Source: Candidatus Pacearchaeota archaeon CG10_big_fil_rev_8_21_14_0_10_32_14 (lineage in GTDB: Archaea; Nanobdellota; Nanobdellia; Pacearchaeales; GW2011-AR1). From it: a DNA stretch of 34,318 nt. The stretch is taken from positions 1-34,318 of the forward strand of contig PFCY01000075.1 of assembly GCA_002763085.1 (NCBI GenBank), given 5' to 3'. Shown piece after piece: positions 4,748 to 24,587 of this stretch; within the stretch, counting starts at the first letter, position 1; every line of letters starts with the position of its first letter. The notes below the pieces were generated by a model. The model was not told the DNA's origin and ran no database searches. It saw nothing but the letters and a program-made list of their open reading frames with translations. Position numbers and translations under genes: made by a program.

Positions 4748-5482
4748 TTAATTAACTTTTTTGGCTAAAATAACAAAATGTGATGCAAGAGTTGGTCGTT
4801 TTGAAAAGATTTTATCTATTTTCAGAACACTCGATGGAAATCCAGATTCATATACCGCACCTTTTACCTCAAGAATCTTAAATCCGTGCATTTCTAAAAT
4901 ATCTTTTAATGCTTCAAGTGTAAATATCCTGACATGCCCTACCGGAACGCTGTCTTTCTTGAATTTCTTTAAAGGTCCGGCCCCAACCAGTTTAGATTTT
5001 GTCGACGGTTCCACAAATAATGGTTGAACTCCCATAGGCACCAGAATTCTATTGAACCAAGCGAGTAAGTTTGGAGTTGAAATAATTAAGTGACCGTCCT
5101 TTTTCAAAATCCTTCCCGCTTCCTCCAAAAAATGATCCGGATTAAAAAGATGTTCAATCACTTCTCCAGCATAAACTACATTAAATTTGTTTGAATTAAA
5201 CGGAAATTTTTCTTCAATATTTCCTTGTTTAACATTCAATCCTCGTTTATTCGCTAAATCAACTTCTTCTTGAGAAAAATCAAGCCCATTACATTTTTGA
5301 GACGGAAAAACTTTCATTACTTTAGATAAAAAAAGTCCATCTCCACACCCAACATCCAAAAACTCTCCATCCCTAAAAACTTTTACTAAAAATCTCATTG
5401 ATTCAATTTCCCTATGTTGAAGCGATCTTTTCTGATCTCTTATTTTACTCCAGTGAGCATAATGATCTATAGTTTTTGACAT
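4748..5482 (-). CDS. class I SAM-dependent methyltransferase
   Basis: 244 aa. Motif I LDVGCGDGLF and post-I LDFS, Methyltransf_11-like. Confidence 0.85.
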   Translation of the reverse strand: MSKTIDHYAHWSKIRDQKRSLQHREIESMRFLVKVFRDGEFLDVGCGDGLFLSKVMKVFPSQKCNGLDFSQEEVDLANKRGLNVKQGNIEEKFPFNSNKFNVVYAGEVIEHLFNPDHFLEEAGRILKKDGHLIISTPNLLAWFNRILVPMGVQPLFVEPSTKSKLVGAGPLKKFKKDSVPVGHVRIFTLEALKDILEMHGFKILEVKGAVYESGFPSSVLKIDKIFSKRPTLASHFVILAKKVN

Positions 5483-5521: not shown

Positions 5522-5710
5522 GGGCTTCATCCCATATTACAAAAATTAATTTATTTATAATAGAGATTTTGTTTGGTATTATGGTGGGACTCGATTTGGG
5601 CGAGCAACTTCGTGTTAAGGGGTAAGGTCTTGGTTGGTGGTCGAAGTTGTGTGTTTGGCAAGTTAATTACAAACAAAATCTCACAAAAAAATTTAATTTG
5701 GGATGAGGCC
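5522..5710. repeat. Long imperfect palindromic element with GC-rich core hairpin (repeat family copy 1)
   Basis: Outer arms ggcttcatccca (5523-5534) and tgggatgaggcc (5699-5710). Middle arms gagattttgtttg (5563-5575) and caaacaaaatctc (5670-5682). Core stem 5604-5612/5642-5650. A 30-mer at 5598-5627 matches 23029-23058 at 28/30 positions. Confidence 0.8.
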
Positions 5711-7704: not shown

Positions 7705-8586
7705 TTACAATTTCCAATGCGTATTGACATAACTGCCGAAAATCCTTAATGTTTCATTATATTCTCCATCAGGATCAAGATATTTTCTCAATCTATCTAC
7801 TGCATTCTTCACATTAGCATCATCTTGATGTCCAATTAGTTCAATATAAAAATGATAACCATCGGTCCCATCCGGACGAGATTGAATAGATTCTAAATTA
7901 ATATCATTTTCAGAAAATATTTCTAAACAACTTTTTAAAACTCCAGGTTTATCCTTTACTATTGGATGAATTGCAATAAATGTTTTATCTTCTCCACTCG
8001 AAGTTTGTATTTGTTTCCCAAGCACAATAAATCTAGTTTTATTATGCGGACAAATATTTTCGGCTATGATTTCAAGCCCATTTGATTCAAGCGCACTTTT
8101 CGACGCTATAACTCCTGCATCATAAATTTTTCCATATATTATATCTTCAATCGCTTGAGCGATACTACTCGTAGCAATAGTTTCAACTTTTGGATAAAAT
8201 TGACAAAGATATCTACTGCATTGTTCAAGAGCTTGATCTTTAGATAATATCTTTTCAATTGTTTTATGCTCTTTCAAAGCGCCTAAACAATGGACTATCT
8301 CCATACTCCTTTCGGCAATTATTTTAGTATTTGTATTCTCAAGCAAAGAATCAAGAGTTTCTCTTACTTCACCATTATAATAATTATCTAAAGATACAAC
8401 CCTGTAATCCAAAGATACCGTCTCAACGCCTATAACAACTTTTCTTATTGGAATTATTGGAAAATACTGAACTTCTCCTAAAATCTCTTTTGTCGCTTTC
8501 TCCGTAAACGTCTTAGACGATCCAAGATAGCCAACTTTCAAATTATTTAATAGAATATGTTCATTAAAAAAAGAAAAGACTACCAA
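7705..8586 (-). CDS. pheA: prephenate dehydratase (PDT + ACT domains)
   Basis: 293 aa. VGYLGSSKTFTEKA start, NKTRFIVLG, ACT region KPGVLKSCLEIFSENDINLESIQSRP. The start codon is uncertain (TTG in the ORF track). Confidence 0.8.
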   Translation of the reverse strand: MVVFSFFNEHILLNNLKVGYLGSSKTFTEKATKEILGEVQYFPIIPIRKVVIGVETVSLDYRVVSLDNYYNGEVRETLDSLLENTNTKIIAERSMEIVHCLGALKEHKTIEKILSKDQALEQCSRYLCQFYPKVETIATSSIAQAIEDIIYGKIYDAGVIASKSALESNGLEIIAENICPHNKTRFIVLGKQIQTSSGEDKTFIAIHPIVKDKPGVLKSCLEIFSENDINLESIQSRPDGTDGYHFYIELIGHQDDANVKNAVDRLRKYLDPDGEYNETLRIFGSYVNTHWKL

Positions 8587-8770: not shown

Positions 8771-9058
8771 TATCCTTACACTAACCTCTAAAAATGATAC
8801 CAAAAATAAAATTTGAATTTTATCTTTATTAAAAGAATTTGGATTAATTTTTTCGTTCGAAAAAATCTCGTTCTCCGTGTCTCATAATTTGTGAGCATTA
8901 ATCTGCGAAGTCGAGCATTTACGTCTTGGCAAATTTTTATATATATCAAGACGTGGATGGGAGTAGAGAGTTTATGACTTGAACAAAATTTCAAATCAAT
9001 AACAAGTCGTGGGCTCGAGCAACAAATAACAGAATAAAAAAAGATTTTCAACAGAGCC
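8771..9058 (+). repeat. Intergenic mosaic repeat, copy A (direct repeat of 10068-10293)
   Basis: Shares the blocks tatccttacac, atttgaattttatct, tttggattaattttt, gagcattaatctgcgaag and aaaaagattttcaacagag, in the same order, with 10068-10293. Contains a perfect 8-bp hairpin acgtcttg/caagacgt (8921-8953). Confidence 0.8.
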
Positions 9059-9084
9059 TATAAAACTGTTGTAAATTTTATTCC

Positions 9085-9855: not shown

Positions 9856-9944
9856 TTAAACCTCTTTTTCTTATGACAATGACGAAAAATAAGTATTTAA
9901 CTTTTGTGATTAAGATTAGGCTATCACATATTACAAAATTTAAT

Positions 9945-9989
9945 TTAATCGTTATACCCCGCAGCTCTGCTGCGACTGGGTCGTTGATT
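9945..9989 (+). repeat. 45-nt GC-rich hairpin repeat
   Basis: ttaatcgttataccccgcagctctgctgcgactgggtcgttgatt. The reverse complement of 16786-16829 matches at 43/45 positions. Stem cgcagc/gctgcg with loop tct. Confidence 0.8.
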
Positions 9990-10067
9990 TATTTAATATA
10001 GAGGTTTTGTTTGGTAATCGGGAGGTATTCAATTTGGATGAGATACTCCTAGCCCTAAATTGAGGGG

Positions 10068-10293
10068 TATCCTTACACAAATCTCTAAAGATCATAACAA
10101 AAATAATATTTGAATTTTATCTCTATTAAAAATTTTTGGATTAATTTTTCTGTACGATCAAATTCTGACGAAGTCAAATTTGAGAGCATTAATCTGCGAA
10201 GCAGCAAAATATTAATCAATTTTTCTTTTCCCCTCCCAGATTAGGGGGAATCGGATTCAAAAAACAAAAATTAAAAAGATTTTCAACAGAGTC
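10068..10293 (+). repeat. Intergenic mosaic repeat, copy B
   Basis: Same ordered blocks as 8771-9058. The preceding 9991-10040 resembles the left part of the 5551-5600 element (tagagRttttgtttggta). Confidence 0.8.
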
Positions 10294-10304
10294 TTTAGAA
10301 CAAA

Positions 10305-16727: not shown

Positions 16728-16785
16728 AACTAAAACAAATAAACGATGTTTTTAAATTTTATTGTATAGAAAAATAACATAAATA

Positions 16786-16829
16786 ATCAACGACCCAACC
16801 GCAGCAGAGCTGCGGGGTATAACGATTAA
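16786..16829 (-). repeat. 45-nt GC-rich hairpin repeat (inverted copy of 9945-9989)
   Basis: 43/45 identity after reverse complement. Stem ccgcagc/gctgcgg. Confidence 0.8.
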
Positions 16830-16840
16830 ATCAAATCTCA

Positions 16841-17135: not shown

Positions 17136-17398
17136 AATATTTTCCTATCTTTCCTGACTCTATCTATCTCACTTGTAATAAATGAGGTTATGACAAATCC
17201 ATCTCGGTCATTTACTTCTCTATATATAACTACAATGTGCTTCTTATTAAGCTTTTTGATGGCGATCCTTTCAACCTCATCCCCCTCAATAATCTCTTCT
17301 GGAGATTTGATTGTTTCAAGAACTACGTCGCTAAGCCCAGACATATAATCATGAGATTCGGTGATATGAAACTATCTTTCCTCTGTTAATCTTATCAT
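17120..17398 (-). pseudogene. toxin-like gene (paralog of 32434-32739) interrupted by in-frame TAG
   Basis: Reading MIRLTEER*FHITESHDYMSGLSDVV... aligns with KIRLTKERWGHITSPESLHPY... of the paralog. The TAG at 17372-17374 aligns with the conserved Trp. The ORF track only shows the downstream 74-aa part (17120-17344). Shared C-terminal motif DGF[VI]TSFIT. Confidence 0.55.
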
Positions 17399-17492
17399 TA
17401 CTTTATTTTTTGAAAGAGTATAGCCGATCATTTGTATAAAATAATTTAAAACTATCTAAATGTTTCTATAAATTAGATTTTTTATTTCCAAA

Positions 17493-17698
17493 CGCCCCCA
17501 CCGGGATTCGAACCCGGGTCACGGCCGATCTTCTCAACCTTTCTTATAATTCGCGTTAGCGATCTCTTTAGGAGAGGTTTTGTCGAGCGACTTCACGAAG
17601 GACTTTTATTATCAATCCCAAGTGGGGTCGCAAGTAGGAGAACCTTAGGTTCTCCAGCGTTGAAAGGGCCGCATTCTTGGCCTCTAAACTATAGGGGC
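17493..17698 (-). tRNA. tRNA-Glu(UUC) with 133-nt intron (exons 17661-17698 and 17493-17527)
   Basis: Hand-folded. Acceptor GCCCCTA/TGGGGGC, D stem GTTT/GAAT, anticodon stem CGGCC/GGCCG, loop CTTTCA|C, variable TGAC, T arm CCGGG-TTCGAAT-CCCGG, discriminator G. No CCA encoded. The exact splice junction (37/38) is assumed, and a BHB motif was not verified. Confidence 0.8.
17584..17631 (+). repeat. GC-rich hairpin repeat family copy 3 (inside the tRNA-Glu intron)
   Basis: Left arm cgagcgacttcacgaag. Stem gcgacttc (17587-17594) pairs with ggggtcgc (17624-17631). Homologous to 17961-18012. Confidence 0.7.
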
Positions 17699-17700
17699 AT

Positions 17701-17813
17701 GCGTGATTTATATTTGCTCCTTAAATCTAGGCTAAGAATGTTTGCATTCTTGGTCTCTCGTTTGGATTTATACGAACGAGGTATCAGTTTACTGATGCCT
17801 AAACTATAGGGGC
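17701..17813 (-). pseudogene. Duplicated 5' portion of tRNA-Glu with inserted hairpins (tRNA fragment)
   Basis: GCCCCTATAGTTTAG (identical 15-mer) and CCAAGAATGC recur 115 nt upstream of the intact tRNA. About 42 nt of two hairpins (ATCAG/CTGAT, CTCGTT/AACGAG) are inserted in the D-loop position. No matching anticodon stem or T arm. Confidence 0.5.
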
Positions 17814-17835
17814 ATAAAATAAGTTACAAAAAATA

Positions 17836-17844
17836 GTTTTTAAA
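17836..17844 (-). promoter_or_regulatory. TATA box (ttttaaaaa on the minus strand) upstream of the tRNA fragment
   Basis: Centred about 27 nt upstream of position 17813. Matches the ttttaaaaa-type boxes seen before protein genes. Confidence 0.45.
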
Positions 17845-17960
17845 AGCTTCTGTATTGTTGAGGCAACTTCCCAATTGCACATAAATTTCCTTTGGAAGGT
17901 TTTTATTTATTTGAAAAGTTATCATCTTAATACTATCGTAACAAAGAAATCCAAGCGTAA

Positions 17961-18049
17961 GCCGAGCAAGTTCACGAAGATGAAATATAGATATCCATTC
18001 CGAGTGGGCTTGGGAGTTGAATTTCTGAGCATTTAATCTGCGAAGCAGC
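17961..18049 (+). repeat. GC-rich hairpin repeat family copy 4 plus the gagcatttaatctgcgaagcagc block
   Basis: Stem caagttc (17967-17973) pairs with gggcttg (18006-18012). The block at 18027-18049 matches 8893-8910 and 10184-10201. Confidence 0.65.
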
Positions 18050-18089
18050 TAATGCCCCAGTTAAAGGGCGTACTTTAGATGTATTCAAA

Positions 18090-21697: not shown

Positions 21698-22810
21698 ATG
21701 AGAAAGAGTATTTCAAGAAGAAATTTTATCCTTACGGGGCTAGCAGGACTTGTTTCTACTTCTTTACCAAATTTAGTTTTGGCGTCAACTCATGAAAATG
21801 GTGCATTAAAAGATGTGGAAATTAGTTCGCAAGAATGGAATCCTCAAGATATAACAAGTTTAATCGAATTACCTTTTTATGTTGATGGCAAGGAGGAAAA
21901 TCAAGCTAAGGGAGAGAAATTTATAAGTACAGACATGTATCAAACGGCTTTGTGCTCTGATGGAGCATTTTCAAGAAACAGACGATGGGTAGTATCACCT
22001 CCTGTTAAAGAATTTTATGGAGATAAATTCAATGGGAGTTTTATATATGATACCGTTTCTGGAAGAGTTTTCAGCCTTGATATAGATCCAAGTTCTAAAG
22101 CATCTCCAAATATTGTCTGTAACGACGGTAGTTTTATAGTAAAATTAAGAGCTAATGAATTTATTTATGGCGACATCAAAAATGGAAGAAAAATAAAACT
22201 TCGAGGTAAATCTGAAAATAATCCGGATTCAATAAAACCTGCACTACTTCAATATTGTAATTTAAGTGACGATGGAAAAGTTATGGCGCTAAATCTAAAA
22301 GAAAGATCTCTCGTTCCACGCGAGTCATGGGAGCTGTTATATTCTCAAGGCAGCACTCGGGCAGTTTATTCTCCTCACTTTTATTTAGTTGATACTCAAT
22401 CATTTACTTTGATTGACCATAACCAGGGAAATTTACTTGTCATGGACGAAGATGCTTCAGTCTTGATCACAAGATCTCAAGGTCTTACGACAAGAGTGGA
22501 TCGAGATCAAGTAAAATCAACACTTATCGGAAACCGAAACGGAAATTATTTTCCAATGATTATAAGTCCAAACGGAAACTTTTGCGCCTATGTTCAAAGA
22601 GATAAATCACCATACTCAACAAGAATTGAGGTCAACTCTACAGGTGCTTTGTATGATATAGAGGGCTTCGTTCCCGATGTTCGAACTATCCAAGACGACG
22701 GAGGTTTTGAATCAATTCAGGGCAAATTCGATTACAAAGACGGAAATTACGTTTCAATTGACTCCTCAGAAAGAACTCACCAAAACATGAAAATCACAAA
22801 ATTAAGATAA
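21698..22810 (+). CDS. secreted protein with twin-arginine (Tat) signal
   Basis: 370 aa. SRRNFILTGLAGLVSTSLPNLVLAS fits the S-R-R-x-F-L Tat consensus. TATA tcttttaaagaaa lies about 24 nt upstream. Beta-rich, possibly propeller-like. Confidence 0.6.
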   Translation: MRKSISRRNFILTGLAGLVSTSLPNLVLASTHENGALKDVEISSQEWNPQDITSLIELPFYVDGKEENQAKGEKFISTDMYQTALCSDGAFSRNRRWVVSPPVKEFYGDKFNGSFIYDTVSGRVFSLDIDPSSKASPNIVCNDGSFIVKLRANEFIYGDIKNGRKIKLRGKSENNPDSIKPALLQYCNLSDDGKVMALNLKERSLVPRESWELLYSQGSTRAVYSPHFYLVDTQSFTLIDHNQGNLLVMDEDASVLITRSQGLTTRVDRDQVKSTLIGNRNGNYFPMIISPNGNFCAYVQRDKSPYSTRIEVNSTGALYDIEGFVPDVRTIQDDGGFESIQGKFDYKDGNYVSIDSSERTHQNMKITKLR

Positions 22811-24394
22811 TTTCTTGACCATATATTCACCATCTAATTCATAACCCATTTTTTTATAATACTCTCGAACTCCAACCCCCGAAATCACCGCAATTTTTTT
22901 GAATCCATTTTTAGAAGAAATTTCTTCCGCTTCTTTCATGAGTTGTTTTCCTAAACCTTGATGCTGAGCAACATTCTCATGTGAAATTGCGGTTTCATTT
23001 TTATTTTTCTTACTATCCGGGGGGGAGAGGGCGAGCGACTTCGTGGTAAGGGGTAAGGAAGTGGAGGTGTGCGAGGTCGCGAGTTGGGGGAAAGTGGAGG
23101 GTTTTGCGAAATCGTTTTTAATCTTTTCAAGTTCCAATGCCTGTCCATAAACATGAAGTTCTCTTACAATCGCGCAATCTTTTAATTCATGAATAAAATT
23201 TCCATTCTTCGACGGAAAACGCAATCGCAAAAGTCCATATAAAATATCTTTATCATCGACAATTTCAAGAAATAATTCTTTACCCCCGCTTGAATCATAT
23301 TCTATAATTTTCAATTTAATATTTTTTCCAAGAATTTTTTGAAAACCAACTTCTCTCATCCTTATTTCTCTCAAATGAATATTATCTTTTTTAAGATCGT
23401 CTTCAATATCTTTTCTCAAATCAAGTTTTTCTATGCCTTGAACGACAAGTTCTTTAGGGATCTCTCTCATTATCCTCATTATCCTGCAATACTCTGGAAT
23501 AAGTTTCATCATCTCTTCAACGACTTTCTTCGTCGTTTTTTCGTCATAAGGTTTGTATCCAGAAACTTTTGCAATTTTTTCTAATGGTGCTCCGGCAACA
23601 ATTTGACAAGGATAAATCTTCAATTGATCGGGTCTGAATCTCTCATCATCAAAAATCATCTTGAATAATTTTATATCTTTTTTTGGATCGCTTCCAGGAA
23701 GACCAGGCATAATATGATACCCCACTTTAAATCCAGCATCTTTTAATCGCTTTGATGCTTCAATAACATCTTGTAAAGTATGTCCTCGATTAATATTCTT
23801 GTAGATTTCATTATCAGGCATTTGAATTCCGATTTCAACTCTCGTCGTCCCGAAACGCAACATCTGTTTTATTTCTTCTTCACTGCAATTATCCGGCCGA
23901 TTTTCTATACAAAGTGCAACAACTCTATGTTGAGCTTTTTCATTAAGTTTTTTCGCCGCTTCAAGTGTTTTAGATCTGACACGTTTTTCAGTGTCTCGCG
24001 ATGCGTATGCGTAATCGCCATTTAAAACGTCATAAGTAGATTTGATCACGTATTCTTGATACTCTTTTTCATACTGCAAAAATGTTCCGCCAAGAATTAT
24101 AACTTCAATCTTATCCGTCGGATGATTCATTTTTACAAGTGCATCAAGTCGAGCAGAAACTTGTTTTACAATATCATAATCAAAAGCCATGGCTCGCATT
24201 ATCGCTGGTGATTTATCTGTATAACTCTGTGGAGTTGTTTCGCCCCCTGGACAATAAACACACGTTCCATGATTGCATTTTCGAGGTTTGAGTACAACAG
24301 TCAAAACTGTAACTCCCGCTTTGCTTCTAACAGGTTTCTTGACGGTCCCTTCTTTGACTTCTTTCTGATAAGTTTGTTGATTTGCGATTTCCAT
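22802..24394 (-). CDS. elp3: Elp3 (radical SAM + GNAT tRNA U34 modification enzyme homolog) carrying a repeat-derived in-frame insertion
   Basis: 530 aa. Cys cluster CNHGTCVYCPGG, VRELHVYGQ, GNAT QHQGLGKQLMKEAEEI. An anomalous S/T/P-rich segment lies between YG and QHQG. Confidence 0.9.
   Translation of the reverse strand: MEIANQQTYQKEVKEGTVKKPVRSKAGVTVLTVVLKPRKCNHGTCVYCPGGETTPQSYTDKSPAIMRAMAFDYDIVKQVSARLDALVKMNHPTDKIEVIILGGTFLQYEKEYQEYVIKSTYDVLNGDYAYASRDTEKRVRSKTLEAAKKLNEKAQHRVVALCIENRPDNCSEEEIKQMLRFGTTRVEIGIQMPDNEIYKNINRGHTLQDVIEASKRLKDAGFKVGYHIMPGLPGSDPKKDIKLFKMIFDDERFRPDQLKIYPCQIVAGAPLEKIAKVSGYKPYDEKTTKKVVEEMMKLIPEYCRIMRIMREIPKELVVQGIEKLDLRKDIEDDLKKDNIHLREIRMREVGFQKILGKNIKLKIIEYDSSGGKELFLEIVDDKDILYGLLRLRFPSKNGNFIHELKDCAIVRELHVYGQALELEKIKNDFAKPSTFPQLATSHTSTSLPLTTKSLALSPPDSKKNKNETAISHENVAQHQGLGKQLMKEAEEISSKNGFKKIAVISGVGVREYYKKMGYELDGEYMVKKLS
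23018..23107 (+). repeat. GC-rich hairpin repeat family copy 2, inserted in frame in elp3 (30 codons)
   Basis: 23029-23058 matches 5598-5627 at 28/30 positions. Stem gcgacttcg (23035-23043) pairs with cgaggtcgc (23072-23080). Translated on the minus strand as AKPSTFPQLATSHTSTSLPLTTKSLALSPP. Confidence 0.8.
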
Positions 24395-24439: not shown

Positions 24440-24569
24440 GCTTTGTTGAAAAAATCAAAATAAATGAGCAAGTTCGTTTATTCAATTCACTCTTTCGGGA
24501 GGGCGTGGGAGGGGGAAGGTGGTCGGATTTACGAACTTGCTAGAAATAGAAAAAGATTTTCAACAAAGC
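24440..24569 (+). mobile_element. MITE-like palindromic element (repeat family copy 5)
   Basis: Terminal inverted repeats gctttgttgaaaaaatc (24440-24456) and gattttcaacaaagc (24555-24569). Perfect 11-bp inner stem agcaagttcgt (24467-24477) with acgaacttgct (24531-24541). G-rich loop. Confidence 0.65.
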
Positions 24570-24587
24570 AAATAATTAATTCGCACA

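Follow-up and report, generated by a model that had tools for sequence, protein, structure and literature searches.

A tRNA-Glu(UUC) gene of a Pacearchaeota archaeon with a probably recent intron related to a family of dispersed hairpin repeats

Contig PFCY01000075.1 of Candidatus Pacearchaeota archaeon CG10_big_fil_rev_8_21_14_0_10_32_14, analyzed here over its full 34,318 nucleotides (the window), carries on its minus strand (17698-17493) a gene for tRNA-Glu(UUC) whose anticodon loop is interrupted by 133 nt of repeated sequence. The locus is probably a genuine tRNA-Glu(UUC) gene that acquired its intron recently, as the syntenic gene of a related genome lacks exactly the interrupting bases, and the interrupting sequence is a copy of a composite repeat centred on a hairpin that also occurs in intergenic DNA and within the coding sequence of Elp3. 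We consider it likely that a small, non-autonomous structured element was inserted into the anticodon loop at the DNA level and was tolerated through a relaxed motif that could still be spliced.

The tRNA-Glu(UUC) gene and its empty site

A preliminary description of the window had folded a tRNA-Glu(UUC) by hand and assigned it an intron of 133 nt at 17528-17660, and these coordinates proved exact. With introns allowed, ARAGORN returned tRNA-Glu(ttc) at c[17492,17699] and placed a 133-nt intron behind position 37; under relaxed filters, the Rfam tRNA model scored 41.2 bits (gathering score 29) over 17493-17698(-), with an anticodon-loop insert of ~135 nt (Table 1). Both default ARAGORN and Rfam at gathering thresholds missed the tRNA-Glu at 17493-17698; its detection required the intron mode of the former or relaxed filters for the latter, and annotators should be warned that a tRNA-Glu gene of this kind escapes default tRNA finders. 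The joined exons form a canonical tRNA, as in archaeal tRNA genes with bulge-helix-bulge introns, and CCA is not encoded at the end of the 3' exon. The locus is not an assembly artefact, because an independent Joint Genome Institute contig (L001) is 100% identical over 1.6 kb around it and a single Logan contig of run X4 covers 17200-17700 with zero differences.

The empty site is found in GCA_040960315.1 (L192), which was reached via the closest Elp3 homolog and is partly syntenic with the window. Its syntenic tRNA-Glu(UUC) gene lacks precisely bases 17528-17660, and the exons of the two genes are identical at 73/73 positions (alignment A6). Since the spacer DNA around the gene is barely alignable and the Elp3 DNA is 79% identical between the two, the exons appear to have remained under constraint while their surroundings diverged. 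The tRNA-Glu(UUC) genes of other relatives, located through a pattern taken from the 3' exon, are likewise intronless, and those of L087, L090 and L093 equal the joined exons of the window at 72/73 positions. Because the syntenic ortholog is intronless with fully identical exons, the sequence comparison indicates that the 133-nt intron is a clean, recent gain. Intronless tRNA-Glu contigs also occur in the metagenomes that contain the window genome; they are several-fold deeper than the latter (141 vs 18) and are therefore those of other organisms. In these metagenomes, a different intron interrupts at least one further tRNA-Glu at this position. Species-representative genomes gave no exact match to the 5' exon, and synteny anchored on S10 in 80 relatives revealed no tRNA-Glu adjoining S10. 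With its 133 nt, the intron is the longest when compared with those of 15 intron-bearing tRNA genes in ~0.7 Mb of relatives, which measure 18-85 nt.

The intron as a copy of a composite repeat

The intron contains a perfect 8-bp hairpin (hp1), which the preliminary description had already noted, followed by a hairpin of the family described below. A single metagenome scan, which used 27 nt of the intron, led to one locus, L097, where a homolog of ~125 nt lies ~65 nt downstream of an intact tRNA-Leu(UAG) gene, on the same strand and inside no tRNA. The homology extends from intron nt 3 (GCUGGAGAACC...) to about nt 128 (...UUGAG), so that ~2 nt at the 5' end and a few nt at the 3' end of the intron fall outside it; ~84/97 aligned columns of the core are identical by a hand count on the alignment, and the similarity is weaker beyond the core. 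Among Logan contigs, 17567-17655 recurs in two more contexts whose flanks are unlike those of the window. One variant, with 3 mismatches, probably represents another copy within the window genome, since its depth in four runs (18.8/6.9/3.7/2.4) tracks that of this genome (18/7.9/4/3.9), and the other is of the L097 type. In the more distant relative L013, hp1 again precedes the family hairpin, and a G-C pair of hp1 is replaced there by A-T in a compensatory manner. Because the L097, Logan and L013 copies carry hp1 and the hairpin together, it is the intron as a unit, and not the hairpin alone, that belongs to a repeated module of 90-125 nt. Several dispersed copies with different flanks are thereby at hand, as in miniature inverted-repeat transposable elements (MITEs), and filled sites can be compared with empty ones for tRNA-Glu and Elp3 (both against L192) and for the D-loop of a tRNA-Leu fragment in L097 (against the intact gene).

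These copies bear on the two origins that the preliminary description had offered, namely that the intron is mobile or that the element entered an intron already present. The family hairpin (~55-60 nt) is able to insert by itself, as it did in the D-loop of the L097 tRNA-Leu fragment, and might in the same way have enlarged an older, shorter intron. Such a history is nevertheless very improbable and can be set aside, because the homology with L097 covers ~125/133 nt of the intron and the syntenic ortholog, like all near-identical tRNA-Glu genes of relatives, is intronless. The idea of intron mobility stands in the sense that the intron, taken as a whole, represents one copy of a dispersed repeat.

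The preliminary description had further linked the intron copy of the hairpin to an intergenic copy nearby, and had proposed that one family occupies a tRNA intron, a protein-coding gene and intergenic DNA. Both claims hold: the intron copy (C) and the intergenic copy (D) are mutual best matches with 71% identity over 55 nt, and copies B in Elp3 and A in intergenic DNA belong to the same family. The core CGAGCRANTTC occurs 4 times in the window, against 0.08 expected, always on the plus strand and once inside the Elp3-like open reading frame (ORF) at 22802-24394(-). Read in the sense of the host gene, the family begins with (A)ACUCG and a ~5-bp outer stem, continues with a CC/AA internal loop (or a U-A or C-A pair), an inner stem (CAC/GUG or UCG/CGA) and a variable top, and closes with the 3' strand of the outer stem and CUCGNC. 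Type I has an A+U-rich apical stem and includes copies C and D as well as three copies in L097, whereas type II, with copies A and B and two in L097, has a C-rich loop of ~30 nt (...CCUUACCCCUUA...). Covariance models R1 and R2, built from 4 and 3 copies, detect each other's members weakly. In the window they find at least 4 strong and 3 weak copies, all seven on the minus strand; in L097 they find 6 copies within 1 kb, including a new one at 911-971 (69 bits). New members were also found at L002 5809-5870 (59 bits), at L075 41-103 (35 bits), in L013 and, as several weak matches, in L096.

The stems of the family covary. Across 12 copies, 92.9% of the stem cells pair and 7/7 pairs are changed on both sides, which none of 500 shuffles reached; slid controls pair at just 20-43%. 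In this count, variable loops were cut out and the segments picked by eye. Type-II stems contain, at a fixed position, a C-A mismatch on the gene-sense strand. As this mismatch becomes a G-U (G-T) wobble on the opposite strand, the asymmetry points to a single-stranded DNA or an antisense form rather than to a structure selected in the mRNA. In wider collections, a 19-mer from the hairpin had only chance matches, to high-GC bacteria among species-representative genomes, with no locus below 45% GC, and had a single, likewise high-GC match among viral contigs; a gapped type-I pattern matched only two cyanobacteria among the genomes and nothing in viral contigs, and a type-II pattern had no match in viral contigs.

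The second filled and empty pair between the window and L192 lies in Elp3. The window's Elp3 comprises 530 aa, against 446-505 aa in most of the homologs listed, and its closest homolog (P0002, from L192) is 75% identical by BLASTP and 85% over the alignment. Comparison with P0002 and the solved Elp3 5l7j shows one additional block, FAKPSTFPQL...ISHE, flanked by KND and VAQHQGLGK, two conserved motifs, and copy B occupies its middle. The layout of the insertion (25 nt, a hairpin of ~60 nt, ~53 nt) is that of the 133-nt intron. A search for bulge-helix-bulge motifs around it gave only weak out-of-frame candidates and none in frame, so that a spliced mRNA intron was rejected and the insertion is most simply taken as translated. 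In Elp3 of this clade (P0004, P0045, P0062, P0081 and P0092; alignment A5), lineage-specific insertions of 12-60 aa have arisen independently several times, at two or three sites, with one insertion near that of the window.

Stems that covary in hp1 and in the family hairpin, and the orientation of all window copies in the sense of their neighbouring genes, might also be expected of a functional small RNA (a guide or a stable circular RNA) hosted by the intron, with the other copies as paralogous RNA genes; type-I hairpins that end exactly at +1 of tRNA-Leu (L097) and tRNA-Asp (L075) would suit this explanation as well. We regard it as quite improbable. Neither an Rfam match, a CUGA D box, a proper C box nor a pseudouridylation pocket was found, one copy appears to be translated in frame within Elp3, and the type-II C-A mismatch on the gene sense, a G-U pair on the opposite strand, argues against selection of a sense RNA. 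An intron-encoded C/D box guide RNA of the tRNA-Trp type was rejected, as the transcribed strand contains no CUGA, only UUGAUAA, and lacks an Rfam match; inspection of the hairpin likewise led to the rejection of H/ACA and K-turn readings. Group I introns are reported from Pacearchaeota (PMC6125680). A group I intron was rejected here, with no catalytic core (P3-P9) recognized by Rfam at gathering or relaxed thresholds and a length of 133 nt that is too short.

Some further observations concern the surroundings of the hairpins. Type-I hairpins ending in ...GCTCA reach exactly to +1 of tRNA-Leu (L097 521-578) and tRNA-Asp (L075 41-103) in two genomes. A promoter-like module, GCTCTGTTGAAAATCTTTTT, is repeated at 9033-9063, 10268-10298 and 24545-24575 of the window, at ~1020-1045 of L097 and at ~5730-5750 of L002, and those copies that were read (window ~9040-9060 and 24545-24575, L097, L002) are followed within ~10-60 nt by hairpins of the family. 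The motif GCATT(T)AATCTGCGAAGCAGC, with a small hairpin CTGC-GAA-GCAG, occurs three times in the window (8905-8925, 10187-10206, 18030-18050). A leader- or promoter-like block of ~80 nt is shared by 5529-5609 and 9923-10047, upstream of two plus-strand ORFs; the latter continues at 10036-10080 into a diverged hairpin (GAGATAC...GTATC) where the former has copy A.

Predicted splicing and the origin of the intron

In the predicted splice motif, the anticodon stem CGGCC/GGCCG serves as an outer helix of 5 bp. The 5' cut would fall between 17661 and 17660, in CA^A (C36-A37^A), and the 3' splice site lies inside a 3-nt bulge, AU^C, between the outer helix and a central helix of 4 bp. All 4/4 pairs of the central helix (CUUU/GAAG) can form, one of them as G-U. 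The 3-nt bulge is present both in the minimum-energy fold with the cloverleaf constrained and in a fold with the motif forced; the latter is just 3.8 kcal/mol above the constrained minimum and stacks the conserved CUCGAC that follows the family hairpin on the central helix. The preliminary description had asked for a valid bulge-helix-bulge motif, and the answer is divided: the 3' bulge and the 4-bp helix are canonical, and a strict motif is absent, as no inner helix closes the 5' site. The motif is thus predicted to be a relaxed one (helix-bulge-helix or bulge-helix-loop), through which the intron would presumably be removed by splicing. Over all intron predictions for the relatives, the inner helix (h') ranges from 0 to 8 bp, and in most of these introns it measures 2-8 bp. 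Several DPANN lineages possess alpha4 endonucleases with an extra L3 loop and have markedly more disrupted tRNA genes (PMC5829648), and this survey of DPANN included genomes of Pacearchaeota and Woesearchaeota.

The sequence of events that we favour would be as follows. A non-autonomous, non-coding selfish element, consisting of hp1, the family hairpin and a tail, would insert as DNA into the anticodon loop of tRNA-Glu, and the insertion would persist thanks to pairing between GAAG, at its purine-rich 3' end, and C32-U35 of the U-rich loop. Together with the anticodon stem, this pairing would create a bulge-helix(-loop) substrate to be cut by the archaeal splicing endonuclease, whereupon an RtcB-type ligase would join the exons. 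Movement of the element as DNA is our inference, and a lead as to how it moves comes from the hairpin, the absent duplication, the strand bias and the wobble asymmetry, which recall single-strand elements of the REP (repetitive extragenic palindromic) or IS200/IS605 type.

A number of observations weigh against this account. At the 5' site, h' has 0 contiguous pairs, so that the strict hBHBh' architecture (helix-bulge-helix-bulge-helix) is not formed, whereas relatives' introns with a full 4-bp central helix in the ARAGORN register mostly have an h' of 2-4 bp. In the minimum-energy fold with the cloverleaf enforced, an extended helix CUUUCAAC/GUUGAGAAG pairs the 5' site. Splicing itself is predicted from the sequence and from its folds. 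As regards mobility, no target-site duplication was found at the three sites whose empty state is known (tRNA-Glu, Elp3 and the L097 tRNA-Leu D-loop), the ends of the composite repeat show only partial complementarity of the GGAGA...TCTCC type where terminal inverted repeats were sought, and neither a transposase with matching ends nor an integrase was found in the 34-kb window. Outside the hairpin, the arms of the Elp3 insertion and of the intron are not alignable by eye. The hairpin family is known from this clade only and from few sequences, and exact-pattern scans of species-representative genomes and viral contigs gave no more copies, so that the sample of copies is small.

The missing h' and the paired 5' site would fit a disrupted pseudogene, in which the repeat killed this copy of tRNA-Glu while another tRNA-Glu(UUC) gene elsewhere in the genome does the work, and the family does insert where no splicing is involved (Elp3, intergenic DNA). 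A dead gene is unlikely, however, to have kept exons identical to those of the ortholog at 73/73 positions while the paralogs of the intron differ by 4-13% and neutral flanks have diverged heavily. The sequence features at the junctions, namely the insertion exactly at 37/38, the canonical 3' bulge and the 4-bp helix, likewise argue for a functional gene, as does the orthology of the locus to the tRNA-Glu(UUC) gene of L192; moreover, archaeal genomes usually have one gene per isoacceptor (PMC3293823).

A different route of gain is suggested by the region upstream of the gene, where a tRNA-Glu 5' fragment is found. Within it, ATGCCCCTATAGTTTAG repeats the first 15 nt of the gene with the preceding 2 nt, AGACCAAGAAT resembles the D-arm, and an insert of 40 nt sits in the D-loop. 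The fragment is 78/79 identical in L192 (~8432-8510), though the spacer and the upstream non-coding DNA have diverged, and it appears to be under constraint; because the intronless L192 carries the same fragment, it is older than the intron. Upstream repeats of the first 14 nt of a tRNA were found at 5/59 tRNA genes of the clade in the loci fetched (Glu twice, Leu, Ser, Ile), namely at L097 437-786, L004 ~7614, L087 ~6116 (minus strand), L192 and the window, and where the sequence was read (Glu, Leu, Ile) the similarity of repeat and tRNA ends in the D-loop. Controls placed downstream or in reverse complement gave 0. By analogy with the model for Caldiarchaeum, these repeats look like scars of site-specific recombination at the 5' parts of tRNA genes.

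On this basis, the intron might have been gained by recombination with an intron-bearing tRNA-Glu attachment site on an integrating plasmid or virus, a possibility that concerns the mechanism only. The signature of integration at tRNA 5' parts and its frequency in the clade (5/59, with 0 in controls) speak for it, and the same model was proposed for the tRNA-Thr of Caldiarchaeum (PMC3293823). We consider it improbable here, since L192 has the 5' fragment without the intron, which uncouples the older fragment from the gain, the repeats are separated by 98 nt only, with neither an integrase nor an element body in between, and the intron sequence also occurs in non-tRNA contexts.

The CTTTTAAAAAC box upstream of the fragment has counterparts 21-35 nt upstream of relatives' tRNA-Glu genes, while the intact gene of the window has only a degenerate box. 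This variable spacing of 21-35 nt led to the rejection of a strict promoter-to-+1 distance, as in leaderless tRNAs. Splicing of the fragment to the gene via a bulge-helix-bulge was rejected too, as no such motif occurs in the window or in L192. The tRNA-Leu of L097 has two upstream 5' fragments, and the D-loop of one of them contains a type-II hairpin; a module GGAAG(G/A)TTAAGCGAAGGAAACCTT(T)GGTGTCCTCGC adjoins the 5' end of tRNA-Glu in L093 (~125-163) and the 3' end of tRNA-Leu in L097 (~395-432). Two loci of L088 in which ARAGORN finds no tRNA may be multiply disrupted tRNA genes: one (~917-1075) resembles a tRNA enlarged by two inserts, at the anticodon loop and the T-arm region, and the other (~1258-1331) a tRNA-Glu without pairing between the 5' and 3' strands of the acceptor.

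Genomic setting and comparison with known systems

The window has a G+C content of 32% and encodes the housekeeping proteins Elp3, ThyX, dTMP kinase, aspartate kinase, ribosomal protein S10, a carbamoyltransferase and thioredoxin; no transposase, integrase or splicing endonuclease was found among the window ORFs scanned. Its S10 is 79-93% identical to those of metagenome-assembled genomes labelled Woesearchaeota, Pacearchaeota or Nanoarchaeota, and its sequence is present in groundwater and aquifer metagenomes. These features mark the source as a DPANN archaeon from the Pace-/Woesearchaeota group. The GC skew is negative in nearly all 1-kb bins of 1-34318 and the cumulative skew drops almost steadily, so that the window probably lies within one replichore; the minus-strand bias of the hairpin copies could be linked to replication. 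Another small repeat family forms a 52-nt inverted pair (9938-9989 and 16785-16836, 94% complementary) with a G+C-rich core CCCCGCAGCTCTGCTGCGACTGGG, and recurs with 85% identity at L192 6978-7030, in a different place.

Table 1. Features of the tRNA-Glu locus and of the hairpin family in the window.
Feature	Position	Strand	Description and evidence
5' exon of tRNA-Glu(UUC)	17661-17698	minus	38 nt, positions 1-37, ends CCCUUUCA; ARAGORN -i and Rfam tRNA model; same as the intronless L192 ortholog
Intron of tRNA-Glu	17528-17660	minus	133 nt, canonical position 37/38; ARAGORN -i and Rfam tRNA model; exactly missing in L192
3' exon of tRNA-Glu	17493-17527	minus	C38 to discriminator G73, CGGCCG...UGGGGGC-G; ARAGORN -i and Rfam tRNA model; 100% identical to L192 8601-8636
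C32-U35, 5' strand of the central 4-bp helix	17663-17666	minus	Hand mapping, script check, constrained folds
3' strand of the central helix and 3-nt bulge	17527-17533	minus	GAAG (17533-17530), then bulge A,U^C38 (17529-17527); folds
Composite repeat core	17567-17658	minus	hp1, type-I family hairpin, AAAACCTCTCCTAAA; same ~90 nt in other contigs from these metagenomes and at L097 285-372
hp1, perfect 8-bp hairpin	17637-17655	minus	GGAGAACC-TTA-GGTTCTCC; arms 17637-17644 and 17648-17655
Type-I copy C, in the intron	17578-17637	minus	R1 77.5 bits; stem covariation
Type-I copy D, intergenic	17957-18019	minus	R1 75.9 bits
Type-II copy A, intergenic	5596-5657	minus	114 nt upstream of minus-strand ORF 4748-5482; R2 78.6 bits
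Type-II copy B, in the Elp3 coding sequence	23027-23087	minus	R2 81 bits; R1 cross-hit E 0.0013
Weak type-II-like hairpin	24466-24540	minus	10-bp stem AGCAAGTTCG/CGAACTTGCT, 72 nt upstream of the Elp3 start; R2 12.2 bits, E 0.076
Two diverged family hairpins	8907-9030	minus	Outer stem, CC-AA internal loop, inner stem; weak R1 and R2 matches
In-frame insertion in Elp3	22976-23110	minus	135 nt (45 aa), copy B in the middle; missing in P0002/L192, 10 other homologs and solved Elp3 5l7j
tRNA-Glu 5' fragment	17744-17815	minus	ATGCCCCTATAGTTTAG, 40-nt two-hairpin insert, AGACCAAGAAT; 49 nt upstream of the gene
Promoter-like box (role inferred)	17836-17846	minus	CTTTTAAAAAC; 22 nt upstream of the first G of the fragment

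The interrupted gene shares with archaeal tRNA genes that contain bulge-helix-bulge introns the position one nt 3' of the anticodon, the anticodon stem as the outer helix and the canonical exons. Its 3' site likewise has a bulge of 3 nt, next to a central helix of 4 bp that includes anticodon-loop bases. Unlike the strict form of these introns, it has no inner helix, judged by sequence and predicted folding.

Among mobile elements, REP/RAYT, IS200/IS605-type hairpin elements and MITEs share several traits with the present family, namely small non-coding hairpins with conserved flanking bases, no visible target duplication, a strong orientation bias and G-T wobbles on one strand. This is a likeness and nothing further; no cognate transposase was found in the 34-kb window and the ends are undefined. 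Rickettsia palindromic elements are reportedly short selfish repeats that occur in frame in protein genes, in RNA genes and in intergenic DNA. The Elp3 insertion is like them in being in frame without destroying the gene; those elements are bacterial, homology with them is not shown, and they have no link to splicing.

In Thermoproteales, near-identical introns at unrelated tRNA sites were attributed to late, DNA-level gain (Fujishima et al., 2010, as given in PMC4090602). The present case is similar in that near-identical intron sequence occurs at unrelated sites. Whereas the copies described there lie in other tRNA genes, those of the window's intron lie outside tRNAs, with a related hairpin in a protein gene. 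What differs from Thermoproteales is that the donor family is visible outside tRNAs, also in a protein, and that a syntenic empty site exists, in a lineage of DPANN and not of Crenarchaeota. In Caldiarchaeum subterraneum, gain of a tRNA-Thr intron at the population level was observed together with an upstream 5' tRNA fragment (Sugahara et al., 2012, PMC3293823). Intron gain and a 5' fragment upstream are likewise combined here; in Caldiarchaeum, an insert of 1.8 kb that bears a recombinase separates the fragment from the gene, while in the window the distance is 98 nt, contains no gene, and the fragment predates the intron.

More broadly, and with somewhat less confidence than an even chance would warrant, we propose that the hairpin-centred units of ~133-135 nt are undescribed small mobile elements of DPANN, whose insertion into an anticodon loop directly creates a spliceable intron, and which also insert in frame in proteins and next to or inside the 5' parts of tRNA genes. 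If this were true, the window and L192 would, as a before-and-after pair, document how an archaeal tRNA intron arose from selfish DNA. The origin of archaeal tRNA introns is an old question; to our knowledge, similar introns in different tRNAs have led to the inference of late gain by 'transposition', with donor and mechanism not known. Here, an empty orthologous site, a filled site and non-intronic copies of the same sequence are seen together, and the same hairpin family is also central to the in-frame insertion of a conserved enzyme (Elp3). One pre-tRNA whose splice motif is relaxed, one element family and naturally occurring alleles, filled or empty, in groundwater communities that are accessible constitute a testable system, which bears on how selfish DNA becomes an intron and on how permissive the splicing endonucleases of DPANN are.

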